Source of the DNA: Takakia lepidozioides
Lineage: Eukaryota > Plantae > Bryophyta
Length of the DNA: 64,000 bases
NCBI GenBank assembly: GCA_030704615.1
Contig: CM060733.1
Location: forward strand, 50,220,001 to 50,284,000
Direction of reading: 5' to 3'
The notes beneath the pieces are model-generated. The model ran no database searches, was not told the origin of the DNA, and saw nothing but the letters and a program-made list of their open reading frames with translations. Of the stretch, positions 35,649 through 64,000 are shown one piece after another; the stretch's first letter is position 1, and each line of letters opens with the position of its first letter. The position numbers and the translations under genes are program-made.

Positions 35649-37964
35649 CCATCACCCTCCTCATATTTCTTACCACAGCAGAATAGAATGAGAAGATGGT
35701 AAAACCATGCCGGCATGCATGCGGACCTTCTTTAGCAGAGTTAGGATGTACACAAACTTACTAACACAGGACTGACCAAAGTTGCATCCGGCTTACACAA
35801 GTGAACCATAGCCTTTACACCCCATCCGCAGGCCTTGGAAAATCAGTATATGTACGTATCTTTCTGGTACGAGGTATAGATGCATATAGGAAAAAGTTGA
35901 GGTGGTCAGCATGTACCTTCAGAATCCTGGACAAAAATCTAGTGATATCACAAAGCAAGCTAGTCCAAATTTGACCAAACTACGAACATGTACCCCATGA
36001 ACACCCTAAAATCTCCTTACAATGACGATCATCATTTCCAAAAACTTGCATTACTAAAGCTCTGATTGGCGCTCTAAACCCAATTTCAGATTAAAAAGAA
36101 GCTACATCCTGTATTTGTTAATTTCTTGGGCACTTGCACCACAGAGAATCTCCCAGAGAATATCTGAAGTCAAAAACATAACAGTGTAATGTGTCTTGAG
36201 TGAGATTTGCACAGAAAATTCTGTCACCAGCACAACAAAGTAATTGCTCACCTATAAGGCAAACTATAATATCAACCCTTCAATAATTTAATATTCCACA
36301 AATTGTATACTTGCGGAAATGGTTCTTTCCTTTTAGAGAGAGATAGATGTTATCCATTGGGACAAGTGAGCTTCACAATCTGTAAGGGCAAACTGAGAAT
36401 CTGCACCCTGCAAGTCCTGTTCTGCACTGGTAGGTACCCATAAGACCTGTTCAATCAACACCGGGATATCTAGTGCATGCTCAACACTCAATGAAAATTT
36501 CTCGCTTAAATGGGAACACCCACTCTGTTTTGGGCCCAATTTAACCTCTCAAGATGCCCAATGCTTGCCTGCCATCAACATTATGAAGAGCAACTGAAAA
36601 TTTTCATTCAAGGAAGAGGTTGGAGGCAGACAAGAGAAGAGCTTACCTCTGGCAGAGGCTGGTTGCTCTCCGCAATCTTGGTGTCAGACATGGAGCAGAT
36701 CTGATTGACCCGTAAATCCCCTACCCTGGTCGCTGTGAGTTCGGAGATGCTCTGAAGTGATGTAACCAGTCGACTAAAAATCGCATCAAAGGCAACTTGA
36801 TTCATCGTGTTGGCATCCCATCCTTGCCCTCCACTGTCAACTAGATCGATCAGGAAGGCAATAGGCACCGATTTCCAGGATTCACCGGTCCTAAACTGGG
36901 CAATTATCTCACGTATTTCGACCTTAGCCAGCAATTCACACTGTCACTAGTTCCGTTCATTTCACTTCCATGGATTGGCATCCGGGAATATCCGCTAATG
37001 CTCCTCACCTTCGTCTTCTTCGTCAAGTTCACGCTTCACCTGCTTCCATCATTTCATCACCGATTAATGGACTTCCAATATACTCCGCAGATATCTGCCC
37101 CAAGAAACTCGCTGCCGGATTGCCAAACATCACATAAACCATCGCTGATACCAGATCCTAACCAAATTTGCTATGCTACTCCTGCACCAAGAAACTCTTT
37201 ACCTGGATTGCCAAGCCATTTCATCCCTGCCACTTCAGATTCCCGACTTCACCCCAAGAAACAAAGGGACATCCAATGATCTGCATTACGACGTTTCTAA
37301 CCAAAATTGCGCCACCATTCCATCGTCCCAGCACCAAGAAACTCTCAACCGACTTGTCAAACCACTCCACGATCCCGATAACAAGGGGTACCGCAAGATT
37401 GCTCCCCGAGACCGCCACTCTACTCCACCATCCGCATCAGAATCTGACCCAATAATTCACAGAAATCGCGCAACACAAACTGCCGGATGGCATCGCCCAG
37501 CTGTGGAATCCATGTCTTCCTGTGGATCCAGTTCTGGGGGAGCGTGCCTCGGAATCGGGGGTCTATCTATCTAGTGCGCTCCACCTTCTGGTCACCCTGC
37601 TCCCTTCTACGGTTGTTTTGTGTGGCCCGCCTGAGTTCGACTCTCTCTACCGCCCACGCAAAAAATCCCAAACCCTGAACCTGCGAAAAAGACACTTTCG
37701 AGATGCCTGCTCGGATGCCCCCACCGGAGTTCGACTCTAGATCCACAACCCAACTCGGGAGATGAGCTCGACAGTGTAGATTTGATGTTGCAATAAAGCG
37801 ATCGAATGTCATCCACGCTGCGAGGAGCATGATCAGCGTGATTAAGGGTGACCTAATACCTAGCTGCACATATCGATTCTTTTACTGCACTAGCTCGGAT
37901 ATCCCCTGAATTCTCACAGTTTCACAACTCGTGCTGAGAAGTAGAGGCAATCCAGCGATGCCCA

Positions 37965-40544
37965 ATGGCGATAGCGAGAACTGGAGTGTATGTCGATGAC
38001 TACCTGGAGTGTAAGTATTTCTTTCTTGCAAATGTAAATGTGTGCTGAGCATTGTGAGATTCGTTCGCCATGTGTAGACAGGAGGGAGAGGAATCGGGGA
38101 AAGGAGGTGGGGTGGGATTGGGGCGGAATTAGGCACAATACAAATGATGGGCAAAGCAGGGGTGACATGGGGCTAGACATGTTGCAGATTCAAGCTCTCT
38201 TCCAGCGGATTTACAAAGGCTCCTTTCGACTATGAGGGAGCTTGATGAGCGATCTCAGAGTATACTCTCTCTCTCTCTCCTCTCTCACATATGGATGGCT
38301 GCCATGCCTTATTGCATGTCAGTGGAGAGTTGTGTAGGTGGGGGATGGGCAATGCAGCCAGAAAGAGTTTACTTGACGCGCCTAGGCAATGGCTGGCTCT
38401 TTTTTGGAGATGAGCCACTTCTCTGCTTCTAAGCGTGCTTGTGAAAGCAGTGAGTTTGGTTACCGTATTTGAATTTGGTTACAGCAGGCCAACATGTAAT
38501 GATAGATTGGACAGAGTTTGAAAAGCAGGGGACGTTGTGAAGGGAAGAGTTACTCGAAAAGTTCTTGCGTTAACCTTCGCTTTTAAACAGGTTGGCTTTA
38601 CTCAGATGGTGGACCTTGTGCATTGTCAGGCATGCTGGGGCAGTTGCGGGAGCAAGTGAAAGGCTGCCTGATGTTGCCCTCAAAGAAGAAGGAGGGCTTG
38701 GAACCTGACGAGACACTAGAGAAAATGCGGCAGCAGATTGAAACCAATCAGTCCAACACTGTGCGCCTGTGCACTGAGAAGGTGCTGCTTGCCCAACAGG
38801 CCTTTGATTTGGTGAGACCCTGCTTCCATCAAGTACAGTCCTTCTTATCTGCTGACTGCTCCACAATTGCTTTTTGATTTGCACTTTAGACTGTTCGTTT
38901 GCTCAATTGTCTCAACGGAGGTCACTTCTATCCAAGTATATCCTAGTGACTCTCTCTCTCTCTCTCACTCTCTTCCCCCAGACTCCACACCCATCATCTT
39001 TTGCATACCCATGACAGATTGACAGCCATGTGAGGCGGCTGGACGAGGATCTGAACAGCTTTGCAGAAGATTTGAAACAAGGTAGGCTGCTCCTGCTTCT
39101 ATAGGCCCATTAAGCTTCAAATTTAGACGGAAGTGAGGCTCCAGTGAGGTGTCCTTGTTCTGTATGAGATCCCTCCAGAGTGCTTCTTCTCAGAGGAATA
39201 ATGGAAAGGGAACTTCAGGAGGTGAACAATGTGTAATAAAGAATAATGGAATGTGGCAGTGTGTTTGGGAAGATTTTGATGTGACCTAAGGGCTATCTTG
39301 AAACAATTGGAGCCCATTTGATTCGCAGATTTCTCTTATTATGTTGTGAGATGTATATGCATGGAGATGAATGTCTTAGCAAAATTGAGGATTGAGGACA
39401 TATGAACAACTAGGGCTCCTTGCTCCAGCAAAGAACATATGAACAACCAGGGCTTCTTAAAAGGGCAGCTAATGAGGCCTAAGAGTGATGGGCAGAGGGG
39501 AAGTTGCAACCAGACGAGCCAGCAATCCTGCCCTTGGCCATGGGTCGGGACGAGAAGAGGAAGGGGCACTTCTTGACGCCACTGGCCAAACGCCTTGAAT
39601 CCAGAATTGACAGAGACCGGGACCGGGACAAGGAACGAGATAGAGAAAGAGACAGGGATCGGGACAGTGAGTTGATGCCACCTCCTGGCAGTCACAAAAA
39701 GAAGAGTCTTCCAGCCCCCACCGACATTGATCAGCCTGTTGATCCTAATGAGCCCACCTACTGCACTTGTCACCAGGTTTGCTCTACCTTGACCAATGTC
39801 CTTGGTCAAAGGATTTTCAGACATGTTGTTCAGGCTACTTGCAAAAGGACTGACATGGCTGAAGGGCTTTTCAGCCAGGGATACTGGAAAGAGCAGTACA
39901 GAAGAGTCAGGAGGGGGTGTATATGAAGAATAGGCAAACCAGGCATGTTTTGTTTTGCCATGGCTTGACTGGAAAGGTGTGTCAGTACGTTGCAGTACTT
40001 GATGTATTCGCCAGCTTTACTTATTGTTTAGCTTATCTCAACATTTTTGGAGAAGACATCGAGCTGATATCTCACAGATTAACGATGAGTGTTGGCCTGC
40101 AGGTTTCGTTTGGGGATATGATTGCCTGTGATAATGAAAACGTAAGTGATAACGCAAACTTCACTGTCTCTAGCTGGGCAGCTTTGCAGAGGCTTTCCAA
40201 TTAGATTTAGCTCTCCTCATTGTGGAAGTGTTAGGTCTGAAAGTCCGCAGGACGCAAGTAAATGGAAGAAAATGATGTAGGCACAACCCAACCCCTGGTC
40301 TGATGGGCTGTGCACTTTTCATGTTTTGTTGGCTCGCCCAGAAAAAGTTAGTGTTTCTTGGTGTAAGAGAGAGGGACAACCCAGGTCTTGACATGGTGGG
40401 ATGGAATCGTTGCAGTGTGAAGGAGGAGAGTGGTTTCATTATCAGTGTGTTGGGTTGAGCTCAGAGACACGGTTCAAAGGAAAATGGTATTGTCCGACTT
40501 GTAAAGCACTGCAACGGAGGGGTCTCTTGGAACCTCCTCTCTAA
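37965..40544 (+). CDS. ING2: PHD finger protein ING2 (inhibitor of growth family)
   Basis: Exons 37965-38010, 38188-38259, 38630-38811, 39018-39081, 39496-39776, 40103-40141, 40416-40544. N-terminus [16 protein letters not shown] is typical of plant ING2. PHD: [48 protein letters not shown]. Confidence 0.96.
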
Positions 40545-41468: not shown

Positions 41469-41761
41469 CAGCGTTTTTTTTTTCAAATTTGGAAAAGAAC
41501 AGGAGTGGCTACTGAGTTTTGCAAAAAACAGCCATATTTTCTGCTCATCCACTGAAATTTGGACAGAATCATCCTCCGCTGTATTTTCATCCATGTATAT
41601 CATCCATATTAGGCGAATTCATCCAAGATTTATATTTGTTTTTGAGAATTTTGGCGATTTCATCCATGAGAAATAGGGAATTTACGACAGAATATTCGAT
41701 TTTGATTTTTGAGGTCGAAAAAGTGCGAAATTTCGCCAGAAATAAAGAAATAAAAACACTG
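41469..41761. mobile_element. hAT MITE (CAGYGTTTTT family), 293 bp
   Basis: TIR CAGCGTTTTT / AAAAACACTG. Perfect 8-bp TSD GTGTGGCG at 41461-41468 and 41762-41769. Confidence 0.9.
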
Positions 41762-42741: not shown

Positions 42742-45700
42742 ATGGTAGAATGGTGGAGAAAGGGAAAGGAAATGCATGATTTTCTCAGGAAGCGCGAGTT
42801 AAGCAACGACTGTGGGTAAGCTCATAGATCAGTCCGATCTGATGGAGGGGAAGCGAGACTAGTGCTTGACGAATTGCTTCGAAATATTCCTAATTCGGCA
42901 CGATATGTGCTAGATTTGACATTTTGCATGCCGATATTACTGGAGAGAGTAAGCAACAGCCTTACATTTCTTGCAGGTCCGAGAAAAAAATTTGCGAGGA
43001 CTATTCTGCTTCCCGGATTCCATCACTGCTTCAAGAGAGAGAGTTGCCAGGCACAGATGCATATGACAAGGTGTTCGCAGCGGCCTGGCTGGACCACGAA
43101 AAGTTTGTCGTTGGGACTAAGGATAACAAACTGGTACTTTGGAATGCTGCAAATAATAGGAGGATTGATATTTCGTTGCCGCGTCGAGCACAAGCACAAC
43201 CACAGCAGAGTGAGACCTGCGGCATACACTCCATGTACTCTGTCTCACCTTATCCTATTGTGTTCTGTGGTGTTTTCAGGCTTCCCTCCGTTTATCTGCC
43301 AATGAAAATAGTTGAGCTCGCAGCTTCAACTTCTTCATGTCTGCTAAATGGCACTTTGCCAGGAGGCCTTCCGTAGAGTTTGAGCAACCTTGCCTCCTCA
43401 TCTGACAAGAGGTCACGCGATTTTTCCCTGTAGCCATCTTGCGTTCTTAAAGGCATGTTGGAAAGCAGCTTGGCTGTTCCTGCATATCTTAGTTAACCAA
43501 TGCACTGTATTTGCTCGTAGCAGTCTTGATAGATGGCCATTATGACTTCACAGCATCATCTGATGCAATCATGTGTGCTCCATTGTGAGGGTTCGGTATT
43601 TAGATTGGTTGGAGTTCAGGGAGCTAATGGTTTTTTACTGAAGTGGTCACCATAAAACTGTCTGAGCTGCACCAAAGAAGCCATCTTAAACTACTGTTTT
43701 GTGTTGTATTGGCTCTCCTGTTAGAAAGTGTAGTAAACTTTTCCAAGAATCTCCTTGCCACTGGAGCAGACAACCCAGACGATGTTGCAGTGTTCGAACT
43801 CCCATCCTTCAATCCAGTTTGCCTTTTGTCGGTAAGATCCAAGATACCACAATGACTCTAGAACGATATGACGAACATCTAGCCAATGTTTATGGTTATA
43901 TGAGTATGACTAATGTGGGTTCTGGAGTGGCCTGCTTTTAATCTCTCTATTTTAGGGTTTTCCACCAGCAATGAGGAATGTACCACTTTCAACATACATC
44001 TCATTTACACAGCTCATTGGCATTCATGGAAAATGATATTAGAGTGTCCTTGATCTCCTCAAGATTGTGTTGCAATTTTCTTGCAGATGCAGCTTCCAAC
44101 TCCCACCTTTGAATGGGACACAGCTTGAGAAGCTTTGATAGCCTGTTTGAGGAATTGGTCTGGGACTCTCTAGTATTGTATTTTTGACCTGACAACAGCT
44201 TTTTCTTGGAAAATACAGAAGCACAGTGATTGGATGTTTGCAGCAGCATGGCTGACAGATGTATTGCTTGTAACAGGTTTGGCACCGGACTTTCCCATTT
44301 GGAATTTTGAAGTCAAGTCTTTGCCATAGTTAGTTTAGCACTTGGTGGTATTGTGTTAATATGCTGGGATTGCTTGGCTGACAGATGTATTGCTTGTAAC
44401 AGGTTTGGCACCGAACTTTCCCCATTTGGAATATTAAAGTGAAGTCTGCCATAGTTAGTTTAGCTCTTGGTGGCATTGTGTTAATCTGCTGGGATTGCTT
44501 ACGTTACTTTGAACTCTTGGCAGGCTCTCGTGATACCACAGTGAAGCTATGGTCTGTAGATGTCAACAGTCCATTCACTAACCAGTGCCCAGTCATTGAT
44601 CGATCAGTTCACGCAGACAAAGTGAGAGATCTCAAGTATTGCCCAATTTCTGAGGTATAATATCTCAATTGAGCTGCACGTTCTTTCGATATCCTTGTTC
44701 TAGCCGCTTCCTCTTTTTCTAGAAACTCCTCTCTTGTAGGGTGCATTATGTGTCCAACCCAATATGTGGAGCTTCTCACCTTCAGCACAATTCATGAATT
44801 CTACTGTGTGCAGCGGCTTGCAACCCTGGGACAAGATGCCTTGTGCAATATCTGGGATCCCCAACTCATGGAGGTGGTGAGTGCCCCTTTTGGCTTGTGG
44901 TTTATAGGCAGTCTGGCAGTGTTACCTTTTCAATAGAAGAGGGCACTTTCCAGTAACCTGTGTTTTGTGACTCTTGACCCACAAGTAAGCTTGTACCAAG
45001 TTCTGATAGGAACCTTAGCCAATTCATGTCTAATCCTTTGCTGGGATTGTGGATTATTACAGGTCTCGGGTGTGTCACTTCACCACAAAAGAGAGCTGGT
45101 CTGTCTTGCAATGGAGCATCCTCTTATTGCAATTGGATCTCAGAAGTTCATTTCCTTGGTAGACCTACGCTGTGGACATATCATTCAAGATGTTGAATCA
45201 GCAGATGAAGGGTGGGGTATGCAGCTTCTTCCTCCCTATCTTTTTTCTCTTCTTCAACAAGTGATGCATTCTGTTGACCATTTAAGGGGTGGACTTGCTT
45301 GATTCCGTTTTTTGATATCAGGTGTGCGATCATTGAGTTTCAAAGGCAATAATGTCCTTACATGCGGCGGTGGCAAAGGGAGGTTGTCATTTTTTGACCT
45401 GCGGGCTGAAAAGTATATCTCACTTTGTGAGTACCTTCTCACCTGTCTCACCTCTGCAACAGGAATTTGCCTCCTTTCACTAGTCTCTGGGAAAAATCAG
45501 GAGCATTTGCGTAGCATTGAGGTTGTATTGCATGTAACTGCATTGATTTTGAGGTTCTCTTGTGCAGACCCTGAAAAGGGTGGGTGCACCCATTCTTGTG
45601 GCAGTGCGTTGGAGCTCTCTTATTATAATACAGGCAAAGGCGCTTTGGTGATTCTCTTTTCCAAATGTCACTTGTTTAAAGTCCCTTGTAGTCATTGGGT

Positions 45701-47678: not shown

Positions 47679-48279
47679 TGTTGTGACCACTGTTGGGCGG
47701 ATCTACCCATTTTTTTCATATAGGCCCGTTCCAGATATTGAAAACTTTTGGTTTTACATGTCGTGCACCTAAGCATTGTGCCACAACATACATCGCTGTC
47801 CAACCACACTTCCTAGCATATAGTCCTAGAAAGCCACGCCACAATGATACGGGAATGGTGAAAAGAGGAGAAACCACTCTATCACGTTATATAAGTCAAG
47901 CCAATGGCACCTTTGCTAAAGGACTCCACCATACAAACCTCACTCACTCTCCATCTCAAGAACTAGAGCTATGGCGGCGAGAGAGGCCTCGGGAGGCTCG
48001 ACTAGAAGAAGACGAGTCTGCCTACGTCTCACGTGGAGATAACCTCCCCACGTCCTAAGTGAGGTTCGCCACCTCACTTGGCACATGGAACCAAATGAAG
48101 TCCCAATGCCAACAAAATACAAATATAAATGTATAATGTCCTAATTAGTTAGAAATAACTATTTCTAACCAATCACAAATAAAACCATGACAGCTATCGT
48201 GCACCTAAGCACCGTGCCACAACATACATGATTGTCCAACCACACTTCCTAGCATATAGTCCTAGAAAGCCACGCCACA
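47679..48279 (-). mobile_element. Putative 3' LTR (~600 bp) of a Ty3/Gypsy-type element, preceded by a polypurine tract
   Basis: On the minus strand: PPT AGGGGGGCGA (48290-48281), then TGTGGCG..., ending ...CACAACA at 47679. Internal 84-bp direct repeat at 47761-47844 and 48197-48280. The distal end is less certain. Confidence 0.65.
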
Positions 48280-48549
48280 ATCGCCCCCCTAGCTGGTGAT
48301 TAGGTCCCTCTAACACCGGATAGCTTGCAAGTATCCACCCCAATAAGATCATCGCTTGGTCTTCAATCGCACAAGTCCCAACACTTGAAGTCGATAGATC
48401 AAGAGGCCGGGTGCAAACGTAGCCCCATCGTTAGTCGCCTTCATACAATCCATGATCTTCAGTTGAGTATCCATGGCATTGAAGCCCCACTAGCTAGACC
48501 GTGGGTCACTTGTCCGCCTCCCCATTGTCATGCCCACTACCTCTGTCCA

Positions 48550-49025
48550 AGGCATCGTAGACACAATCATTCTCCGATAGAAACCTCCTCAAGTGGCGGT
48601 GTCAAGCATCCCATGTGCCACCCCCTTGAGCATTTGTCACACACCAACATGGTTGCGGCGCCACCAGCATGCCCACATAGCATGCAACGCAACCTTGCAG
48701 GTACCACTGCAAGGTTAGGATCTATCATCCCATCCACATGTGGAAGGTGACATGGCGCACAATTGCGCACATGGTCCTTCCATACCATGTCATCTCGACC
48801 CTCCAGAATCAACACTCCTGAAGGCAACACCTCCCTGACCCTTAGAATCACACGTCTTGCGGTGACATCCAAGGTCGTAGGTGCTGTCTGCTGCAGATTC
48901 ACATAGTCCCCAGGATGGAAACGCCGAACACTTGGCCGATATCCCCTTTCACATATAGTGGCGTACCTCAATGTATCTCAGTGTTGGGCAATAACAAGGT
49001 TCTCAAAAGCCATAGGCATGACTTC
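48550..49025 (-). pseudogene. Ty3/Gypsy integrase C-terminus fused to a PHD finger
   Basis: MPMAFENLVIAQH*DTLRYA..RRFHPGDYV.L (post-integrase region), then a Cys4-His-Cys3 PHD: CMLC..MLVCDKCSRGWHMGCLTPPLEEVSIGE*LCLRC. Lies upstream of the PPT and LTR. Confidence 0.85.
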
Positions 49026-49029
49026 CCGA

Positions 49030-50500
49030 GAAGTAGTGCGGTGATCTATCAAGGCTTGCTCGCACAAAGCCTGAAACTCCCCCAAGAACTCTCTCCCTTG
49101 GTCCGTGAGTACTCCTTCAGAAGTTGGGCCTTTGGGCCTCAGAAATTCACGAAATGCGCCACTGCCTCAAGGCCTTCCTTCACGTCCCAAAGCTATTCTT
49201 CCCTGTTGTGCGTCCTGATGGACACGAGGGACAATTTCTTCCGCTTACTCAACTACCAAAGGGCACTCCAATTGACCCGAACTCAGGCCTATCTGCTACT
49301 CCATGTCACATCTTGATAAGATTCGATAGCGATACTGACATGCCAAAAGAGGAAGCCCTTTATCGCGCCAAGAAGAGACTCGAAGAAATGCAAAATCCCC
49401 CTGGGAACTGTCTTGTACAATCTAATCACGGCAATCACAAAACATGGAAACAAGATGTGGTATGGGATCCTCAAAATCGAACTGCTACACCCTGCGACTG
49501 ATGGCATCGCGCTCTTGAAAGGCGACATGGCGTTCGTCATGGAGATGGCCTCCGGGACCCCGGTGCAAGGAAAAGTAAAGAAAACATACGACCTCCTCGC
49601 CACTACCGACTACCTCTCCCTGTACATGACAAGCGAGTCTCCAATGGTGCAATAAGCCTCCATCCCTTGTCATTGATCGATTGGTCAAGTTCGACCCGCA
49701 CATCCACAGTCTGAACGGACCTGCTCCACCTGCCAAGGAGATTTTGGATCGCTTGCGCGTAGCTAATATCAATGAGGCGCTCGCCGACACCGTGAACTCT
49801 ATCAACATCAACGCAAATCCAAGCTCGGAACACGCCCAGGACCTGCTTATGCTTGAATCGACAAAAAATTAGCTCCACATGCCATTTCAATCAAAACCGA
49901 CATATGGGGGGACTTAGCAGCTCTGGACAATAGGGTCGCCACAACCATGGTGGCTCAGAAGGAGGAGCAGCACGCCTACCTAGTCTCTTTAAATGACTCC
50001 ATTACCGAGAACCTTGGCGCTAACCTCGCCAACTTCGACAATCACGCCAATGTGGTTCTTGCTAAGCTTCCCCCTCCCAACAGCTCGGCCACTCATCCCT
50101 TAGTGCTGGGAGATGCAAGCATGATACCGGAAGCAACGACGGGTGGATACAGCCCACTTGCCCTGCTGGAATTCCATCACGCTGATCCCCTCTGGGAATC
50201 ATGAGCTCTGCAACAAAACCATCCGCCGCGGTCACGCTGACCCTCCTACCACCGCAGCAGCCTGGTTTTGACACCAGGGACCCCACCGCAACATGATTAC
50301 CTGCAGCACACACTCCAAATGAGAATGTGTAGGCGACCCCTGCCAATGCTTCCACCAGCCTCAAACAAACGGGCATCCCCGGGGCGATTATTGTTGGCTT
50401 TGAACTACTGCAGCAACACTTCAAATGGTTTCCGCCTTCCTGTTCTGCTCCACTCGGCACACATAGCCAGTCTAACTGCAGGCTCCCCGTGACCAAGCTA
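49030..50500 (+). pseudogene. Frameshifted ORF remnant of a probable transposable element (family uncertain)
   Basis: Overlapping ORFs 49124-49501, 49413-49655, 49681-49872 and 49947-50204 read as one broken protein. No introns are seen, and it truncates the Gypsy integrase fragment. Confidence 0.45.
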
Positions 50501-52896
50501 TATTCTAATAGTGCTTAAAAACAAAACCATCATATCTAGCTTAGCACTAGAAAACTAGATAGATCATCTCTCTCGAGTGATATGAAAACTAAACTCACAC
50601 TGTTGACACAAGAACATGAAATACAACACCATCACTCGTTAAACTAAGAATCGAGCCAGGGGCACCCCAAGCTATGGGGACTCCACCCCACAACATCCTA
50701 TTCTCCCTTCATAAGCACACTCAAATTCTAAGCAGTGAAGGAGCTCGGTCGTGCAGGCTCAACTCGAGAGAGATGAGCCGCACGACTGACGAGCTCGTGA
50801 AGATAAGATGGTTCAGGTGTCAAGCTAAACTTGACACCTGACTTAACACTTGAACTAATTCCAAGTGTTAAATACAAATAACTAGATTTATTCTAGTTTG
50901 TTTCACATTGTGTTTATTTAACTTGACATTTCCTTACGCATCTGAAAAAACCGCGATTATAGCAACAGGCGCGGATAGAAGCAAGCAGTGAAACAGAACT
51001 CCTGCAACCACATCATGATTTAAGGCTCTTGCAAGAAGCCTTGTTACGAACAGAGTGAGATAGCGCTTCAACTTGCTCCCCAAATCTTACTACTCCTCAA
51101 TCTCCTCACTTAGCAGCCTTGGTAGCTCAAAACCTTCAAATCGCGAATATGTTATTGCAAACGCTGCCTCTCCTGCACTTCCTTTGCTTTCTGCATACCT
51201 CCTCTTTACAACCACTATTTCGATCACCCTAAAATCCTTCCTATAGTCTATACCTCTCTCTCACACACATATCTCTCTAGCTCTCGGTTACCTCTTGGTG
51301 TTTAGCTTGTTTGCTAGGGTCACGGGGAAATTTCCCCTCAGTAAGCCTCACGGCCTTGGTGGTGGTTATTTTTTCCACCTTATGACTTTTCTATTAATTT
51401 GATTAAAAGGGCCTCTGTCCCCTTTCATTAAAAAATTTATTTTAATAATAATAATAATAATAATAAACTGTTACATGCAAGTAACAAAATCTAAACAAAG
51501 TGCAATCTGAAAAATTGCCCATCATAGCTTGATATACCATATCATGAAGAACAAATGCATGGTTACATGCGAGCCCTGCCCTGACATAGTTATGAATTGG
51601 TTGTGAAATGATTAACATAATCTAGGAGTTTAAATGCGAGGTAAATTGGTATGTGGTCAGTCTTGTATGCTTCTTTTGTTCCGGATAAAGATTGTTGTAT
51701 AGGTGCATTAATCCACAAAATTAGTTGAGATAATTATAGCATAAGTGCATGCTGAACTTGAATTATCTCCAGTTGTTATTCTGGTACTACGACTTGAGTC
51801 GCTAATTTAAGACCTGTATCTAAGTAGAATTAGCTGAGATAACTATAGCATAACTGGATGCTTAGTTATTTGCAGTTGCTATTCTGCCACTATAACAAGT
51901 CACTCCTAATTATTAGCTGGGAATACATCTCATTTAACCAATCGTATAGGAAAAATAAGTTTCTTATTACTTAAGCAAATTTATTGTGTTATATAGAAAA
52001 CAATTGTGGAAAACTAAAACAATGTCTATGATTTGTATTGAAACTGTGGATTCTATATATCTACATTATTACTGTATTAAAATTATGATATAGACAAACG
52101 ACAACAGAAATTGATAAATAAATTTAATATGTAATCATTTATGAGTTTTTCCTTTTTCACTTCAGCAAATACCAAGTGACCTTTGCTGATTGCTTATGGC
52201 TTATTGCTGATTGTGTCAAGAAGCAGCTTTCGGCCTATCAAAGTCGGAGTCCGCCTCATGACCATGTATGCCATTGGGCTCATCACTCTCACCATCACTA
52301 TAGACATCAGAAGGCTACTGCATCCCTATGTTCTTTAGCAATCAAATGTAATAATTTGTAATGCAATCTTCACTTTAAAATAACAACTACATGTAGCTGA
52401 CGCAAACTCTTTTTTGTCACAGATTGTGCACATTTTTGTGAGCGATTAGCACGTGGGTAACCTTTAAGAAGAAGGAACCAAACAATTGGGTGATGGACTT
52501 CCCTGCATGGATAGAGACAACAATAGATCGAGGATATGCACACTTTCCTCACCACCCCCGCCCACTACTTGAGCTTACAACTGTCCAAAGATATACCATC
52601 GTCTTTTGGGCGTTCCTTTTTGGGGACAGATACACAAACACAGACAGAGCAGAATGGGCAGAGAGAGTTTGTATGATGTGTACCTTCCAAGAAAACATAA
52701 AATGGAGGAAGAATTGTCTGCAGTGTCGAGAAACATTTCACAGTTAAGTATGAGCTGTTAATAAGACCAAAAGGCGAACCAAAGTGTCACTAGGTCAAGA
52801 TAGTAAGCAAGGCAAATATCAGGCAACTTGAGACCCTTCTTGTAGTGAAAGATGTCTTTGTCACTCTCTCAAACAAAGTGCTACATTATACAGAAG

Positions 52897-54950
52897 TCCG
52901 TGGGGGACAGGGTGGTGACCAAGGCATGGCCAACCGGCTTCAGCAACTAGAGCAGAGGCTCGCAGCCATGACCACAGCTCAGGTGGTACCGGCTCCAAGG
53001 TCGGATGGTCCATCTCCTGATTCTGAGGGAGGAGACATGGGAGGCATGGGTTTCATGTGCGGGGCAGCACTATCACTAGTGAGTGGTGTCACTATCACTA
53101 CCACTACCACTATGAGTGGGGCACTACTACCACTAGTGAGGGGTGCCACTACCACTACCACTGTGGATGGGGCACCACTACCACTATGTACGGGGCAGGA
53201 CTACCACTGGTGCAAGTGGAGTCAGCTGCGGCAGTGATTCGAGGAGCAGCACGAGTTCCTGAGCCACGGGGTGCGAAGGTGGAGTTGCATCCACAGCGTG
53301 GGGAGGCAAACCGTCAGGCCAGGCCTCAGTCATTTACATTGGCGGAGACATGTCGACGCCATCCATGACACCTAGTTCTCGCCCGATTGCTACCGAGGCG
53401 GAGGTTACTATGCCATTGGGGAGAGCTACATGGGCAGCACCACTACCTAGTGTTTCCAAGGCTACGGAAACTAGTGTGCTGCTGGGGGCGGTCACATCTG
53501 TGTGTCAAGCTCCATTGTTCTTGGCTACCATGATTGCGACTCTGGGGGTAAGACCAGCTGAGGTGTTCAGGCTGGCAGCTACACTTTGTGAGAGTGGGGA
53601 GGTTACTTCATCTTCTGCGGAGATAGTGGGAGGCGTAGTGATGGAGGGATCCTTAGATGTGAGGGTCAAGACTGCCACGGCGGCGCCATGGCAAGCTGCA
53701 GCTGCCAGGTTGATGGAGCTGCCAGCTAGGCCAGCCATGGTGACACCTGGAGTTGTCATGTTAGACAACCAGGATGACATTTTCTGTTTGAGTGGACCGG
53801 CAGGCAAGAGGCACCGGCCACTACGAGTCTTGTTGGACTCGGGAGCTTAGCCATTGATGCTGGGTAGAACTGCTATTGCAGACTTGGGCCTCACGGAGGC
53901 GGATATGGAGCCGTGCTCTTTCCAGATACAGACATCACTGGGAGGATCAGAGCAGGCTCGGGGCATGACACGACATGAGTTGGCTATCAGACTACAGCCG
54001 GATCATCCTACAGATGGCTCAGTGATGAGAGCCAAGGCCATTATGACAGACGCGGTCTCGTACAATATCCTTATTGGTGGGGCAGTGTTGTACCTCATGG
54101 GCTTCACCCTGGATTTTTGGGAGGAGTCAGCTTCCTATGGGCCTGGATGGTAGTCAGAGGAACGGCGTGTGAGTTGGCCTAGAGAGTTGCTAGAGGGCAA
54201 TGCTCATTCAGAGGATGTGTCATCTCCGGGAGAGTAGGATGACATGTATGGTATGGTGGAGATGCCTGCCATGGTTGCTCACACTCCAAATTATGGGGCT
54301 TGAGTAAGGATTTGCAGCGGGTTGCTGATCGGCGTGTGCAACAAGCCTGGGTAGAGGCTTTTGTACCGTCAGGAGAGGATGATAGTACGGGGCACCAGGA
54401 CCACCTCAGTTGTCACCATTGGACACCACACTGATTGTGTGGCAGTGTCAGGATTAAGGCATTTGCCTTCTGGACTTGTTTGGCGGGATCAACACCGGAT
54501 TGGCTACTGTTCTACAGGCATGTGTACAAGTTCGGCGTTACCTGTATGTGGAGAGGGATGAGACCGCATGACGTGTCTCCCTACGCCATGTTGCTTAGTT
54601 GGTGCAGCAGTACCGTAAGTTGTTGCCGGTGTCTGCAGTTCGTGAATATCATCAGCAGGCCTTGCCAGTAGACATTTCATTGCTGGGGGTGCAGGATTTG
54701 GAGCGGGTTGGCTCCATTGATTTGGTAATGGCAGGTTGGCCCTGCCAAGGGCATTCATCAGTCGGGCATGGCAATGGATTGCGAGACTCGAGGTCGGGTC
54801 TGTTTTGGGAGATGGTGCGGGTTTTGCGCCACTTATAGCTTCATCAAGCTGTATCTCCAGCATATATCTTGGAGAATGAGCCACTGATGGGCGATTCTCG
54901 GGCCAGGGTGATGGCCAGTGTGCATCAAGTCTGGTCGTGGCTTGGGTCAG
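52897..54950 (+). mobile_element. Degenerate Ty3/Gypsy-type polyprotein fragment: low-complexity region, aspartic protease, C5 DNA methyltransferase
   Basis: Protease RVLLDSGA*PLMLG (D at 53836) and YNILIGGAVL. Downstream DNMT motifs I-VI lie in one frame. Truncated at ~54950 by a LINE. Confidence 0.85.
54461..54946 (+). pseudogene. C5 cytosine DNA methyltransferase domain (motifs I-VI), retrotransposon-borne, with in-frame stops
   Basis: Motif I ICLLDLFGGI, II YLYVERD, III DI, IV IDLVMAGWPCQG (Cys at 54743-54745), V GLRDSRSGLF, VI YILEN (54863-54877). Stops at 54569, 54596 and 54836. Confidence 0.9.
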
Positions 54951-57915
54951 AGCCCGGTAAGACTCTATTGGCTTCAAGAGGTGGTGGCAAGTACATAACC
55001 ATGCTAAAAAACATAAGCAGACATTGATGAATCCATAAAAAATGTTACAATGTTTGAGCGACAGCAATACAAAGGCAGCAGGGCTAGGGGAAAATGTCAA
55101 ATCTTTCTGAAATCATCAGTACAGCCGACTGCCAGTGTTGGTATGAGAGTCCAAGCTGATCCAGGTATCAGAACCTCAGCCGTGCTCTTGATTTAGTGTC
55201 CCTAGCTCTTTTATGCCTCCAATTGAATTCAGCCTCATCTCCCTCACCAGGAGACTTCCCATTGAGTGGGGATGGCGTCTTTCTAGGTAAAGCGCATGTC
55301 GGGAAGGCTGGAGCCAAGCAGGTCGCCTTTGTAGCTTGCGTCCTTGTTGTTCTGAAGTTCTGGGAATAGCTGCACACACAGAGTCCCACGCTTTCCTCCC
55401 CTCAGTTAACAAATCATGATATGTATGAAACAAGATCGATCTGCCTCTGGGGTGTTTGCCCTCATAAACCCAGGCACACCTTGTTTTCCACAAATTCCAT
55501 AAGGTATGAGCTCTCAGAGAAGCCCAAACCGGGCAGCTAACCTGAGATTGAGCAATCTGAACATTAAGGAGCAGCATTGAAGGAGGGGGTGGATTGGAGA
55601 AAGAGGCCCAGTGAGAATAGAATCCAACAATTATTCTCTATATCCTACTTGAGATATTGCAAACAGTGTTCAATAAACTCTGGTTCAAGCAAGCAGAGGG
55701 GGCAGGTAGGCTGGTCCTCATGGGTAACAAGCCTGATGGGGAGTATTCTGTGTGCCAGTTTCCATAGGAAGTCGGATACTTTTGTAGAACGGTCCTTCCT
55801 CCAAATGTCTCTCTACACTTTGTCCCAGCAGCCTTGAGGTAAAATGTGGTTGCCCCATTTGGCTGTCCATTTTCTTTGAAAAGAGCGAGGTGGGTTGATG
55901 AGAGAGTAACCCAACTTCACAGAATAACCAAAGAAAGGGGTTTTTTTGCTATCCATCCACCGCCACTCTCCTGGATCGAATTGCAAATCAGCCAAAGGGC
56001 AAGAGAGGAACCAGGATATGATTCGTGAAAGGCCCATTGCACTTCCAATCCTGGGGGAGGCAAGGGTTTGGCATTGCCTTTACTGTCCAACACTCTTATG
56101 TGGCAGAGGTTGTCCTTGTTGTGGTCTGTAATGCCTTGAAAAGCCAGACAGTCTTCGGCATCTGGTATGAAGCCTATCCCTGTTGCTGTGTTTCCATGCG
56201 TGGAGAGAACGAGGATTACCGTCCATTGATTGTCCGTTGGTGCAGCCATCCAAGCGGGGACTGACCAGTCTGTTTGTGGTTCATCAAGGATGGGCATCAT
56301 GTATTGTGGGATATTTGATAGGACAATGTTCCAAGCTCTAGACCTTCTTCCACCCAGGGATGTAGAGACTTGCTCCTCCGTCAAGAACTGGTCTTGCTCT
56401 CTAATAGAGGCGATGTGGGTGAAGCCTTTCCCTTCCAAAAAAGCCCAGGCCGGGGCATGTTTCAGGAGAGGGGTAGAGTCCATGTTGAAGTTGATGAACA
56501 GCGGCTGGCGGAGGCATTCTTGTATAGTGGCAGGCATTCTCTGTGTGAGGTTGCCCCTCAGGGCATGCCATGCTTTCCAAATTGTTTGCCATGGTCTGGA
56601 AGCCAGCTTAATTCCTGCATTTCTACCTTGGACAATCCACCTGAGAGAATGAGCCTAGAGGGGAGAAGATGCGGGGATAGATCCCATCAAATAAGGCTGA
56701 ATGAGTTTGCTCCAGGGAGCACTCCTGTATTTTATTGCCCTCGGTATCGACTTTGCCAGTAGTGCTTTGATCTGAGCTGCAATGTCCAAAATTCCCAAGC
56801 CTCCCCGCTTTTTCTCTTGGCACAGCTGGTCCCATGAGACTAGTGCCCGTCTCAATGGCGTAGAGGGGGTGGCCCCCCAGATGAAATTTCTAATGAGGGT
56901 TCTTATCGCCTTATGAAGGGCAGCCTCCAGATCCCATACTGCAACCAAAAACCATAGCGAGCCTTCCATAACTTGATTGGCTACTAGTGCTCTGCCCACT
57001 ATAGAAAGCATTGCCGAGCTCCAAAAAGCCAGGCTTCTCTTAAGTCTGGAAAACACCTCTTTCATTCGGTTGTGCTGCGTAAGATGTATGCCCATCTGGT
57101 GACCTAGCAAGGTGTGTGACTCCCCCGGTTGCAGCCATCTTAAACCAAGGTCTTGGCCCCATGATTGACAATGTGTTGTGGGAGCCCCATCTTGCCGGAG
57201 GGAGAGGATTCCCATGGACTTTCCCCAATTCACTTTCAGGCCTGATCCAATGCATAAAGTATGGAGGGCATGTAGCGCTCTGTCTATGTTGTTTTTCCTT
57301 GTATTGTCTAGCAGGAGCACCGTGTCGTCTGCATACATAGATAATTTCAGCATTTCGGGCCTGTAGGTGGGCAATTGAAGACCAATGATGTCGTGTGTAG
57401 AGTCCAGTAGATGACCCAGTGAATCCGCCGCAATCAAGAAAAGGAACGGGGTGAGTACTGGATAACCTTGTCGTACTGATCTGGATATTGGGAAGGATCT
57501 GGAGATTACCCCATTTTAAACCATTACCATGCTGGAGGCCGAATGGAGTAGTATCCGAACCCATGCCAGGAAAGGACCCCCTAGCCCTGTTTTTTCCAAA
57601 ACCTTCATGAGAAAAGGCCAGTCAATGGAGTTGAAAGCCTTCTCAAAATCCAGGATAAGGAACACCAATGGCTGGTTATTCACCTCAGCCTGTGGAGGCT
57701 CTCATGGGCTAGAAGGATGTTATCAAGAATCATGCGATCCTTGAGGAAGCCTGTTTGATTTTTCCTTATGATGTTCGGCAACAACGGTTGCAGCTTGAGT
57801 GCCAAGGCCTTTGCAATGATTTTATAGGTAGAGTTTAGCAACGTGATTGGCCGATAGTTTGCCATATTGTCTCTTTCCCCCTTTTTGAAATCAATGTTAC
57901 CAGTCCCTCCGAGAT
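54950..57915 (-). mobile_element. 5'-truncated L1/Tx1-type LINE ORF2 remnant (reverse transcriptase, zf-RVT)
   Basis: NYRPITLLNSTYKIIAKAL, QTGFLKDRMILDNI, LDFEKAF, RQGYP, SMYADDTVL, GLKVNWGKS, GGLGILDI, C-terminal RAHTLWNLWKTRC. Several frameshifts. Confidence 0.93.
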
Positions 57916-58605
57916 CTGGGAGTCACAATGACTTCAAAAAATGTATACGGAACAATGTTGCACAAACAATTGGTTGTGCACGACTCTTGATCTCTAGATG
58001 ATAAATTTAGTTGAAATCTCCATATAAATTAATGATGGTTTGTTTCAGTTATGAATGCAAGTCTTCTAAAGAGCTTTGGTTTCTTTACGATATAGTAAAT
58101 AATCCATGCGATTAATATGTTGTCATATATATTTCTTTTATAACAAAAAAATATTTATTGTGCCTCAAATCTACCATCATCGAAGTAATAGTTGTAGCAA
58201 CTTATGTGGAGCTTATGTGTTCAAGCAACATTTCATACATATTTATTTGTTGACATAGTATGAAAATTAAAGCTAGAATATCATAGTATAATTTATAATA
58301 CTATCAATTACTCATAAATATCTATATACCTCTTTGTATTGATCGCAATTTGAAGTCCATAAGAAGAATATAACAAATCAAACCCTAGCCAAATAATTAG
58401 ATATAATGTAGAGCTAGTTCTCTCACATTATAATAATGAAGTGCTCTACAATTCAAATTACTCAATATAAGTAACACACAATATTCCATGAAACATTGTT
58501 CATCCCATGTGATAAACATGAAAACATATATGTACATTAATATTTTTGTGTGCAATTCAAAATTCAAAGTCATGTATAATTGTGTACAATCTCAAAGTGA
58601 CAATA

Positions 58606-61600
58606 CTATGTAATTTCTATATTGTAAATTTTTGGCAATGGATTGAAAACAAAATACCGGGCTTTATCCCAAAATATTAGGGGGACAACTATTGAGGAAA
58701 ATCCAATAGCTACACCTATAGCAAATCCATGTATAGACACAATGTCGGATAATTGAGGTTCTTGGTGTTGTAAGGTTCTATATATCTCTATCGAAGCATT
58801 TAAATTTTGTGTGCATGAATTGTTTAGAGGTGAGCCACAAAGACCTAAATTCCCTGGCTTATAGGTACTTACAGTAAAAGAATTGAATTGATTGCCTCTC
58901 GGAATTAGCCCGGATAGATTGTTCATAGATAGTTCTAATGTACCTAAGTTTTCTAGTTTTGTAAGAGTTGTTGGAATTCCACCTGAAAGTTGATTGTTTG
59001 AAAGATCTAATGTTTCCAATTCTAATAGATTTTCAAAATTTGGCGGTATCTCACCTTGTAAAGCATTGTGAGACAAAATCAAGTACTTCAAAGCCACCAA
59101 CGTACCGATATGCAAAGGGATACTTCCAGTGAGACTGTTTCTTGATAAATCAATATATGCCAATGACTTCAAAATGTATGTATAGTCCAAGCCAATCCCT
59201 CTAGGATATAAAGTGATTTCATAATCAAGTGTCGAACCCGCGGCTAGTGAGTCATTTGAATTTTCTGTCACTTTGAAACCTTGTAATCGAGTAAGGTTGG
59301 TAGGAATATCGCCTGAAAAGTTGTTGTTTGACAAGTCAAGTACTTGAAGTTGTACCATGTTGCCAATCCAAGATGGAATAGAACCCTCAAATTTGTTTCC
59401 AGCTAAACGGAGTATGCGCAAGTTTTGCAAACTCGAATCATTGACTAGCTCAATAGGTAAGCTTCCATTTAGGTTATTCATACCGAAATCCCCCAGTTTA
59501 AGACTAGTAGAAGTGGCGAAAGATGATGGAATACCTCCAATGAGATTATTACTATAAACTGAAAATAATTGTAGATCATCGAGTTGATTAAAATCAAGTT
59601 GTAATGGTCCAGATAGCGTGTTGTTGCTCAACTCCAATATTTGCAAAAACGTACAATTGACCAAAGTCGAAGGAATGCTTCCACTCAACTTGTTTGAGCT
59701 TAAATACAGATATCGTAGTTGCGTCAAACCTCCCAATTGTGTAGGTACATCACCTTTGAACATTATTCAACACCAATTTAATAATAATAATAATAATAAC
59801 CATCACAGTAAGCAATGTGGATTAGCTATACCACTAAGGGTGTTAAGTGAATATTTTTACGAGGTTGGAATCATATTTCTTGTAAGTCGTTCATTTCTCA
59901 TTCATAGCCTTAATTTTCTCTATCATAATGACATATTTGTTCACAATCTACAAAAATTTACCAAATGTATTTGCGATTTTGAACTTTAAATTAATTTATC
60001 ATTTCTGCGCTTTTGAGTTTTCAAATAACACCATACCTTGTAATTGATTGTTGTCAAGATGAAAATATCTCATGGATGTGCAATTGGTCAAAGACGTAGG
60101 GATTTTGCCAATAAGTCTATTTTGGCTCAAATCCAGATACACCAATTGATTCATCCTTCCCATTTCAGTAGGTATGTGACCTAAACATCAAACCACACAT
60201 AATTAGATAATTTCTCATAATCAATCTCTTGTACTATAATCATGTATCCAAGTTCATTTAAAAACAACCAAACAAAATTTGTTTCACATGTCAAATGGAC
60301 AATTTAATAACATCAAAATAATTCTTGTATGTATTGACATTCTTGGTGCTGAAAAACATCATATTCAAATGTTCAACATAACCAATTCAATAAGCCTTGT
60401 GTTCTCTACGCATAATTAACATCTTAATTTTACAAGTGTTGATGGGGTTTATAGAGATATTTTCATATTGTCTTCACACAATGAAATAAGTCTAGATTTT
60501 AAAATTGTTACATTTCTAATTAACGTGTTAATTGTGATAAATGTTATTCATGCATCAAATTTCCCCACCTGACAAATTGTTGTTGTTGAGCCACAAACCC
60601 TGCAAAGAAGTGCAATTTGTCAACGAAGAAGGGATAATGTTGGTAAAATTATTTCCACTCACGTCCAAATATACCAATTTATTCAGCACTCCCAACTCCA
60701 TGGGTATATGACCTGAACATCAACCATTGCATGTTAGTACCTATAGTGTATATTACATGTTCATTACACTATACATTCAAAAATTTAGGTAACAGATTCT
60801 GAATATTCATTGACATTTCATAATATAAAAAGTTGAATGCAATATTGAATACATTATCATCAACCTTTCACATTTAGCTCTAAAAAGACTAGTAGATCAA
60901 TCATAATCCATTGATACTAATATATCTATTATTTGGGTGTTCTCATATACAATTAGATATACTTGAGACAAAAGTTTTGATGCTCTCTATTTCGTTATAA
61001 GTACCATATTAAAATTAACCCGATATTTTATTTTATCTTTTGTGAAAGGAAACCTGGGAGCGACAGCCCACAATTCAGGCCCTTGAGGAGGGGGAAAACA
61101 TAATTATACTAGTGATAAATATGGAGTTTTTACCTGTCAATTGCATGCCGTTAAGCCACAATTCTGTGAGTAGGGTGCAGTTCAACAGAAAAAGAGGGAA
61201 TTGACCCGTGAATTGATTACCACCTAGATTTAAGGAAGAGAGTTGATTCGACATTCCCAATTCCATAGGTATATCACCTGCCAAAAAAAGCATCATGGTA
61301 GAACTTGAAAGAGTGTTTTTCGAGAAAAAGGAGAAAAAGAAGAGTTTTTTTTTTTTTTTTTTTTTTTTTTGGCATAAGACTTTATAACTGAGGTCGGATT
61401 TATGATAAAATAATTATTATTTTTTAATTAAAATTACTACCATAGGTGCCTCTTGCTGTCCGCCATTAATTAAATAAAATAAAAATACAGAGCTGGAGAA
61501 AAAAAAAATTCCTCCTCTCAAAGTGCCAAATATCCATATATTTGAACCCAACACTTGTTTGAAAAGTGTTCAACCTCTTCTGCGAAAAAACAAAACAAAA

Positions 61601-63958
61601 CAAAAACAAAAATGATATGGTGTTTGTTTTTTAGATAATATGAATAAAAAATAATATCAATCTATTAAATATATATTTTGTCTTCAAAGTCAATTAATAT
61701 TTTACCTGTCAGTTGATTGTCGCTGACCCAAAAGTATACAAGGTTTCTCGATCCGATAGGTATATGACCTATACCACCATTAACCATTGTATGTCAGTAC
61801 TATTGCACAATGTTTCTGTTAATTATAGTTACATTAGTTAAAAATAAAATCATATATATATATATATGATTTTTTATTTTTTTTGAAATACAATGTTATG
61901 TACTCACCTGTAAAACTAATTAAGCCCAAGTTTAGCCTAGTAAATGATAGCTAAATCCAAATAAAGAGCCCAAGTTAAAATAATGATCTAAGTGATAGGA
62001 CGTTAAGGGTTGAGGTAGCAATTTTTTTCCTCTTCAAAGATGTTATTTAAAATACACTTAAGTTTCAGTAAGAATTGAAGATATGAGGAGTAGATGGTCA
62101 AGAGCTAACTAAAGAACTACATAGTTAAATGTAGCTAAAGACAATCGAATGATATTCTCAGATCTAAGGATGGATTGACAGTAGTCCTACAACATGATTT
62201 TGTTACATTGTTACACCAGAGCAAAATTTGCAACCATGCAAGAACCTACCTGTGAGGTTGTTGTTGTTAAGCCATACACCCAAAAGAGACGTGCAATTCG
62301 TGAAAGAAGGCGGTATATTGCCCGTGAGATTGTTTCGGCTCAAGTCCATATAGGTTAAATTTTGCAGTTGACCAATTTCTTTGGGTATATACCCTGATAG
62401 TTGGTTGTTGTGCAGCCACAGACCCACAAGGGAAGTACAACTCGCCAATGAAGATGGGATGTTGTCTATGAGATTGTTAAAACTCATATTCAAATATTTC
62501 AATTTCTTCATTGTTCCCAATACATCAGGTATACCACCTGATCAGCAACAACCATCACATATTAGAATTGCGCTCCATATATATTCATCATAATGCACAT
62601 TCAAAAATTGAGTTCAATACAGATTGCAACATGACTACACCGGGAGAAGGTTACATGTGAGGGGGAGGAGATAATCTCACCCATAAGTTTGTTTGAGGAA
62701 AGATAAATGGTACTTAGATTTTGCAGTTGTCCAATTTCTTTGGGTATAGACCCTGATAGTTGGTTGTTGTTTAGCCACACACCCACAAGAGACGTGCAAT
62801 TCGTGAAAGAAGGCGGTATATTGCCCGTGAGATTGTTTCGACTCAAGTCTATATAGGATAAATTTTGCAGCTGACCAATTTCTTTGGGTATATACCCTGA
62901 TAGTTGGTTGTTGTTCAGCCACAGACCCACAAGGGAAGTACAACTCGCCAATGAAGATGGGATGTTGTCTATGAGATTGTTAAAACTCATATCCAAATAT
63001 TTCAATTTCTTCATTGTTCCCAATACATCAGGTATACCACCTGATCAGCAGCAACCATCACATATTAGAATTGCGCTCCATATTCATCAATGCACATTCA
63101 AAAATTGAGTTCAATACAGATTGTAACATGACGACACCGGGAGAAGGTTATATGTAAGGGGGAGGAGATAGTCTCACCCGTAAGTTTGTTTGAAGAAAGA
63201 TAAATGGTACTTAGATTTTGCAGCTGTCCAATTTCTTTGGGTATAGACCCTGATAGTTGGTTGTTGTTTAGCCACACACCCACAAGGGAACTACAATTCG
63301 CCAACGAAGATGGGATGTTGTCTGTGAGATTGTTCCTACTCAAATCCAAAAGCTCCAATGTCTTCATTGTTCCCAATGCAGTTGGTATACCACCTGAACA
63401 ACAACCATCACATATTGTTAGAATTGCACATGTAATTTTAATGTACATTAAAAGATTGAGTAATATAGATTTCAACCCAAGTGTTTATGCCTGAGAGAGA
63501 ATCCATGACCTAAATGCACATGGGAGCCTACCTGTGAATTGGTTGTTGTTTAGCCACACACCCACAAGGGAACTACAATTCGCCAACGAAGATGGGATGT
63601 TGTATGTGAGATTGTTCCTACTCAAATCCAAAAGCTCCAATGTCTTCATTGTTCCCAATGCAGTAGGTATACCACCTGATCAACAACAGCCATCACATAT
63701 TGTTAGAATTGCACATGTAATTTTAATGTACATTAAAAGATTGAGTCATATAGATTTCAACCCAAGTGTTTATGCCTTAGAGAGAATCCATGACCTAAAT
63801 GCACGTGAGCCCACCTGTGAATTGGTTGCTGTTAAGCCTCAATACCACAAGGGATGTGCAATTCGCTAAAGAAGAGGGTATAGTGCCCGTGAGAGTGTTC
63901 TCACTCAGATCGATATGCGAGAGCTTGGTCAACTTTCCCAAATTTGGCGGTATGCCAC
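58606..63958 (-). CDS. LRR receptor-like protein (Cf-9/RLP type: island domain + 4 LRRs, TM, short tail); 5' part extends beyond the window
   Basis: Open phase-1 exons 63958-63815, 63675-63532, 63393-63178, 63040-62681, 62537-62250, 61768-61706, 61277-61134, 60712-60569, 60180-60037 and terminal exon 59753-58606. Plant LxxLxLxxNxLxGxIP repeats, island (YEITLYPRGIGLDY), NQFNSF..GNLGLCGSPL, TM GFAIGVAIGF, no kinase domain. Confidence 0.93.
62250..63830 (-). repeat. Recent tandem duplications of LRR exon + intron units
   Basis: Intron 63394-63531 is nearly identical to 63676-63814, and intron 62538-62680 to 63041-63177. Exon segments are shared almost base for base. Confidence 0.92.
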
Positions 63959-64000
63959 CTACGAATCCAACAGTAATTGCTCGTTAGTTCGAACAATTCA

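Follow-up and report, generated by a model that had tools for sequence, protein, structure and literature searches.

We analysed a 64,000-nucleotide stretch of Takakia lepidozioides DNA, referred to below as the window, and recorded its genes and repeats (Table 1). The host genes encode a kinesin-14 with a CH domain, a BES1/BZR1 factor, a DCAF12-like WD40 protein, an LRR protein and a PHD protein of likely ING type. A kinesin-14 exon used as query returned 10 proteins, and the seven with a named source were all from mosses (Sphagnum, 52-67%; Ceratodon, 50%; Physcomitrium, 49%) in a search limited by shared words; these matches fit a bryophyte best, likely a moss outside the three genera. Small repeats were also observed. 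An array of nine diverged 157-nt units that also shows higher-order repeats (280-500 nt) occupies 60036-63970. A short inverted-repeat structure with duplicated arms at 22891-23307 is likely the remnant of a small transposon, as are dispersed inverted copies 14 kb apart at 27282-27486 and 41541-41746.

Table 1. Features of the window and full-length copies of the family in metagenome loci
Feature	Coordinates	Strand	Evidence or remarks
Host gene, kinesin-14 with CH domain	7000-18500	-	
Host gene, BES1/BZR1 factor	35244-35651	-	PF05687
Host gene, PHD protein, likely ING-type	39489-40500	+	
Host gene, DCAF12-like WD40 protein	42894-45700	+	PF23760
Element 3' end, B1-A2-B2	47759-48281	-	85-nt repeat, 94%; junction and end match L047, L071, L077
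Second piece of the family: end of integrase core, integrase C-terminus, PHD finger	48546-49112	-	PF00628 E 3.4e-07, and identity
Gypsy-DNMT3 internal fragment, both ends cut	52908-54950	+	Loose contig ends on both sides
Remnants between Gag zinc knuckle and protease, two frames	52917-53350	+	tblastn with P0008
Retropepsin-type aspartic protease	53803-54108	+	Own profile iE 2.2e-37; Pfam PF13650 E 0.011
Protease-DNMT linker, third frame	54291-54392	+	tblastn frame +3 pieces
DNMT3-like C5 cytosine methyltransferase, motifs I-VI only	54455-54949	+	PF00145; motif table; stops 54455, 54569, 54596, 54836
Decayed non-LTR (LINE-like) retroelement adjoining the truncated DNMT, ends approximate	54980-57990	-	PF00078 E 1.9e-07 and 1.2e-07
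Host gene, LRR protein	58606-59766	-	
Full copies in metagenome loci	L047:1766-10971, L071:5998-15203, L077:1679-10805		A1-coding-B1-A2-B2

Two decayed pieces of one Gypsy-type family

A preliminary description of this DNA had reported a protease motif followed by cytosine methyltransferase (DNMT) motifs. All of them were recovered where it had placed them, with LLDSGA at 53830-53847, LDLFGGI at 54470-54490, YLYVERD at 54539-54559, AGWPCQG at 54731-54751 and YILENEP at 54863-54883, and with a spacing of 622 bp against a claimed ~600 bp. YILEN, which had been given for motifs V and VI, represents motif VI only in the usual motif numbering. The further claim of a single reading frame held for the DNMT motifs, which share one, and failed for the protease (PR): tblastn placed protease, linker and DNMT in three different frames. 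The profile search that the description had proposed was clear for the DNMT frame, read with X at its stops (PF00145, E 4.5e-10; 39.9 bits, cut-off 22). For the protease, the Pfam match was weak (PF13650, E 0.011, under the cut-off), and that to a profile built from its relatives was clear (iE 2e-37). Upstream of the protease, the related protein P0008 matched 21 aa at 52917-52979 (62%, E 0.016) and 47 aa at 53213-53350 (68%), and a gap of ~31 codons relative to P0008 follows the window protease.

The copy is dead, as had been proposed. Three in-frame stops interrupt the protease frame, one of them at 53848 directly after LLDSGA, and four interrupt the DNMT frame. The window DNMT consists of the N-terminal half alone (profile positions 2-172 of 329); it reads ENE at motif VI, lacks motifs VIII-X and contains four stops, and it therefore falls short of the complete motif set of an active enzyme. 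No Gypsy reverse transcriptase (RT), RNase H (RH) or end repeat was found within 52908-54950. The identity of the window DNMT to its best relatives is 66-74%. The stretch 52908-54950 is thus, by its seven stops and two cut ends, a dead fragment; it belongs to a highly repeated Ty3/Gypsy-type family, and the identity of the element as Gypsy-type and DNMT3-bearing is almost certain. The adjoining retroelement, which we take to be LINE-like from its motifs, is unrelated, since its RT was not matched by the RT profile of the family; no target duplication was found for it. A shorter related LINE-like remnant seemingly lies at about 24450-24860.

Repetition was assessed with contigs. Those of four DNA runs from one sample cover 52755-55013, most of them 90-99% alike. 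Summed contig depth in X1, which is a sign of a strongly repeated family and not a copy number, was 1.7e5-7.6e5 on the fragment versus 62 at 58026-58527 and 58779-59000, and 200-3500 on the adjoining LINE-like element. Loose contig ends occurred at 52908 and 54950 in X1, X5, X8 and X2/X4, with X5 and X8 coming from other studies, indicating that other copies extend past both ends. Contigs of a presumed RNA run matched mostly below 95%, which carries no information on expression.

The second piece of the family carries an internal deletion near 49023, and its PHD finger occupies 48546-48686. It shares 67-73% amino acid identity with DNMT-bearing loci such as L029, L055 and L047, versus 39-48% with the best fetched proteins, and its contig depth is of the same order as that of the DNMT piece. 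The end of the element is made up of B1 (48281-48197), A2 (about 48192-47846) and B2 (47845-47761), with a terminal CA at 47759. The two pieces (47759-49112 on the reverse strand, 52908-54950 on the forward strand) lie 3.8 kb apart in opposite orientation and represent one insertion or two. A third stretch of high depth, ~50570-51100, with a summed contig depth of the 1e5 order, matched neither the related loci nor the end of the element; it is perhaps the 5' non-coding region of the family or another repeat.

The paired LTRs that the preliminary description had expected were not what we found. In place of two complete LTRs, the full copies carry a split repeat, A ... B-A-B. All three (L047, L071, L077) have a spacer of two bases between B and A at the internal junction, 4-bp target duplications and a CA end, and they start with TG in two cases and with TA in L047. 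The strict B-A junction pattern was present in 6 of the 24 loci with a PHD finger, and 21 loci were compared with themselves for ends, most of them without a full end set. Troyka was considered as a match for these odd ends and rejected, as it is described from animals only, with 3-bp duplications and CG ends (PMC12440569, in the part available).

Relatives, domain order and two architectures

We searched for relatives with the window DNMT and obtained 31 longer proteins, among them 19 Marchantia polymorpha models, one protein of Sphagnum troendelagicum and one of Calypogeia fissa; the 19 Marchantia models, labelled 'hypothetical', come from three annotations, and some may be the same locus. 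The full DNMT domain of P0008 returned 73 proteins, and 50% cluster representatives gave 269 matches at E 1e-30 or better, of which 150 were listed. No match named Klebsormidium was among the relatives found, and IMG/VR yielded only phage-type methyltransferases, 27-53% identical over short segments, and no element. These relatives bear out the proposal of a Gypsy-type family of a land plant, likely a bryophyte. The succession of protease, linker and DNMT in the window is collinear with the Marchantia, Sphagnum and Calypogeia proteins.

The domain order PR-DNMT-RT-RH-integrase (INT), which had also been predicted, was found in the relatives, both in proteins and in metagenome loci. P0006 and P0016 of Marchantia carry PR-DNMT-RT-RH in one protein, and P0101 carries CCHC-PR-DNMT-RT-RH-INT in one continuous protein. 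We examined the best 80 of 144 confirmed metagenome stretches and found a protease before the DNMT in 61, an RT after it in 56, and one or the other in 72; a DNMT unlinked to protease and RT, the case that the preliminary description had named against its own reading, is thus not the pattern of the family. All seven domains in the order Gag-PR-DNMT-RT-RH-INT-PHD occurred in 13 of the 80. Pfam assigned the integrase of the relatives to the DDE type (rve and H2C2 domains), and among 64 relative proteins scanned it detected no BAH, chromo, UBA or PWWP domain and no Phage_integrase match, so that the tyrosine recombinase of DIRS/PAT elements was not found. The full layout, like the conserved stop described below, was read in relatives that are for the most part close to each other, and not in this genome.

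A total of 232 proteins were sorted by our own profiles into 58 of type A (DNMT after PR or before RT), 111 of type B (DNMT after RNase H or before integrase), two in which a zinc knuckle was the only other domain and 61 in which the DNMT stood by itself. Most of the 111 type-B proteins have a PHD finger, and the order RT-RH-DNMT-INT-PHD was present in 47 of them. A single type-B protein has a named eukaryotic source, the chlorophyte Monoraphidium neglectum. Another bears the label of a bacterial MAG, which we take as misbinned. No description of the RH-DNMT-INT architecture was found in the literature searched.

The methyltransferase and the stop behind it

An intronless DNMT3-like domain lies within the polyprotein region of this family. 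Comparison of P0008 with PDB sequences gave 27 matches, and the top 25 were DNMT3A/B/C; the last two were HaeIII methylase (E 0.001) and 4onj (E 0.0026), the latter a plant DRM. A structure model of P0002 (pLDDT 52.8) was submitted to Foldseek, and all 42 matches listed were DNMT3. Identity to human DNMT3 is ~20-23%, and in the ESM Atlas one streptophyte cluster and two phage methyltransferase clusters were level at 0.96. By sequence and predicted fold, the methyltransferase is DNMT3-like, an assignment that reflects ranking among solved structures and trees without host plant DNMT3.

Five phage enzymes served as the root for a tree of 55 N-terminal halves. The window sequence belonged to a clade of 25 rows (SH-aLRT 99) that takes in every named bryophyte sequence; its closest neighbours were P0001 and P0034, and it lay outside the subclades of Marchantia, Calypogeia and Sphagnum. 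Type B formed one side of a branch, with a support of 0.83 in one tree and of 99 against the bryophyte group in the 55-row tree; the deep type-A rows have long, unsure branches. We also compared RT-RH and DNMT trees on 70 rows (60 type B, one type-A protein and nine loci, with an RT tree of DNMT-bearing relatives alone). The results showed that 20 of 22 well-supported RT splits recur in the DNMT tree, and the Mantel rho was 0.42 on 63 rows (0/999 shuffles). Because the rows are mostly type B, this co-inheritance of RT and DNMT applies mainly within type B. The sequences suggest a single origin of types A and B.

The DNMT is under purifying selection. Against 74 loci, the window DNMT had a median pS of 0.68 and pN of 0.21, with differences of 0.30/0.17/0.49 at codon positions 1/2/3, and the window protease had a pS of 0.72 and a pN of 0.33 against 49 loci. 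Pairs of loci, drawn from at most the first 40 per domain, were then considered. Distant pairs (dS of 0.5 or more) had a dN/dS of 0.19 for DNMT (39 pairs), 0.29 for PR and 0.08 for RT. Close pairs gave 0.58-0.69 for DNMT, above the 0.33-0.58 of RT, and these high values are mostly decay after insertion.

Catalytic residues were read from an alignment of 143 full DNMT domains, 42 of type A and 101 of type B. The catalytic Cys was present in 38/42 type-A rows, the other four being gaps, and in 101/101 type-B rows; the Glu of motif VI was present in 41/42 and 100/101, respectively, and both Arg of motif VIII were nearly invariant throughout. The Pro preceding the catalytic Cys was replaced by Glu in 8 of the 42 and 53 of the 101. 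Unlike the window copy, the family alignment contains the complete motif set (I, IV, VI, VIII, IX, X). The observed/expected CpG ratio was 0.46 in the fragment versus 0.49 in the window and 0.34 in the adjoining LINE-like element; since the fragment is no lower than these, there is no compositional trace of extra self-methylation.

In most loci, DNMT and RT share a frame and are parted by a stop, while they are continuous in P0101. We assessed the 41 loci in which 570-600 bp separate DNMT and RT; 37 carry an in-frame stop (28 TAG, nine TAA) at 112-113 codons upstream of RT, all 37 stops are followed by CAAYY, and the second commonest stop position occurred in 7 of the 41. The models P0005, P0007, P0008, P0010, P0020 and P0032 of Marchantia and Calypogeia stop 79-82 residues past the DNMT. 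There was no such shared stop between Gag and PR (at most 4/20 loci) and none as clear between PR and DNMT (at most 9/35). The window copy ends upstream of the place of the conserved stop. The TAG-CAAYY context resembles a readthrough signal, with a last base that mostly differs. As 37 of 41 loci stop after the DNMT, the DNMT is likely made at the level of Gag. Judged from these reading frames, Gag-PR-DNMT is likely the major product, and RT-RH-INT-PHD would need readthrough.

Known counterparts, proposed role and meaning

Elements of this kind are known. That a DNMT-bearing retrotransposon had already been described from Klebsormidium, as the preliminary description stated, is confirmed by de Mendoza et al. 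(2018, PMC5890265). According to the available text of that paper, KnitGypsy-Dnmt3 of Klebsormidium nitens likewise encodes, within a Gypsy polyprotein, a DNMT3-like domain free of introns, whose catalytic residues are conserved and which is under purifying selection; compared by description in the legends of Fig. 1e and 4c, it also combines DIRS-like A-coding-B-A-B repeats with Gypsy domains. It differs in its algal host, whereas the bryophyte family belongs to a land plant and is highly repeated. Its authors place the DNMT in one ORF with RT and RNase H; in the bryophyte copies a conserved stop lies in between. The capture was termed specific to the K. nitens lineage; the 2018 survey was made without a liverwort or Sphagnum, and Marchantia and Sphagnum are absent from the text and three supplements of PMC5890265. 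The same source describes SymbioDIRS-Dnmt3 and SymbioLINE-Dnmt of Symbiodinium as carriers of a C5 methyltransferase, which in the DIRS case is of DNMT3 type with A-coding-B-A-B repeats; they are either LINEs or rely on a tyrosine recombinase, and differ in this from the bryophyte family with its protease, DDE integrase, TG...CA ends and 4-bp target duplications. EpiLTRs of Cymbomonas and Euglena (bioRxiv 10.64898/2026.05.21.726589, as available in part) resemble the bryophyte family in joining a C5 DNMT and a chromatin reader in an LTR element. Their DNMT is sister to DNMT4 and accompanied by DAM and a chromodomain, whereas the reader here is a PHD finger, and their authors set them apart from Gypsy-DNMT3. 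Among host enzymes, animal DNMT3A/B are the best solved-structure matches by sequence and fold; unlike host DNMT3, including that of mosses (PMC6453930, in part), the family lacks PWWP, ADD and the plant DUF and is embedded in a retroelement.

A 2019 paper declared DNA methylase-encoding transposons absent from land plants and built an argument on it (PMC6338049, in the part available). PMC12344493 and bioRxiv 10.64898/2026.05.21.726589, in their available portions, speak of 'streptophytes' and cite the 2018 work; their trees may include bryophyte sequences. Such elements go unmentioned in the accessible portions of PMC6453930, PMC10952607 and bioRxiv 10.1101/2021.11.30.470311, and those of REXdb (PMC6317226) name no methyltransferase, PHD or Marchantia. 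The literature searched, with subscription journals and Repbase outside its scope, held no land-plant report. The element is of a kind already described, here from a new group of hosts, and the stop after the DNMT and a wider lineage with two architectures are added at the level of the family.

On balance, we favour the reading that the window holds a dead fragment of a highly repeated Gypsy family whose DNMT likely methylates the element's own cDNA before integration. It is probable that the enzyme works in active copies, and we lean slightly towards own cDNA as its main target. A leaky stop after the DNMT would make Gag-PR-DNMT abundant, and inside the particle the DNMT would be released by the protease and could methylate new cDNA, most likely at CG, before insertion. 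By reading histone tails, the PHD finger would direct integration. The element would likely gain from new copies that arrive already methylated like host repeats. In yeast, related DNMT3 domains of Symbiodinium DIRS elements showed de novo methylation of CG, and no methylation was obtained with that of KnitGypsy-Dnmt3, a result that its authors call inconclusive (PMC5890265, in the part available).

The same element might instead direct its methyltransferase chiefly at the chromatin of the host (the insertion site, further copies of the family or invading DNA), damping bursts or defending the host. We regard this as rather unlikely, although the integrase bears a PHD finger, much of the enzyme would be particle-free if Gag-PR-DNMT is abundant, and roles in host benefit or antiviral defence have been proposed (PMC5890265 and PMC6338049, in part). 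Against it, both architectures place the domain inside a precursor that the protease processes, an arrangement suggesting that it is packaged with RNA and cDNA. It is less probable still that the domain serves to bind nucleic acid or SAM, or acts on RNA, without methylating DNA. The inactivity of the Klebsormidium domain in yeast (PMC5890265, in part), the variable residue ahead of the catalytic Cys and the lack of extra CpG loss in the fragment agree with that idea, but the Cys of motif IV, the Glu of motif VI and the Args of motif VIII are near-invariant across the 143 domains, as expected of a catalyst. A processed host DNMT3 pseudogene beside a protease remnant by chance, or a domesticated host gene, is extremely improbable: the different frames of window protease and DNMT and the missing RT would suit it, but the linkage counts (protease before DNMT in 61/80 loci) refute it, the collinear bryophyte proteins and the 64 relatives free of BAH, chromo, UBA and PWWP also tell against it, and seven stops with two cut ends rule out a working gene.

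Beyond the reading of own-cDNA methylation, we tentatively propose, at just under an even chance, that Gypsy-DNMT3 is no peculiarity of Klebsormidium but a single ancient green-plant lineage of self-methylating retrotransposons. One capture of a DNMT3 may have preceded the chlorophyte-streptophyte split. The domain would then have moved (PR-DNMT-RT in bryophytes, RH-DNMT-INT in the chlorophyte type), been paired with a PHD finger and reached very high copy numbers in bryophytes, with a leaky stop that would make DNMT as abundant as Gag.

The window copy itself is inert. Split-repeat ends together with a DDE integrase present a puzzle of replication. Since 19 of the 31 proteins matching the window DNMT are 'hypothetical' Marchantia models, the family inflates DNMT gene counts in bryophyte annotations. 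With these annotated models, what a retrotransposon does with a methyltransferase of its own can also be asked in a model plant for which genetic tools and methylomes exist. Should the ancient-lineage proposal hold, early land plants may have had in this element a genuine source of de novo methylation.
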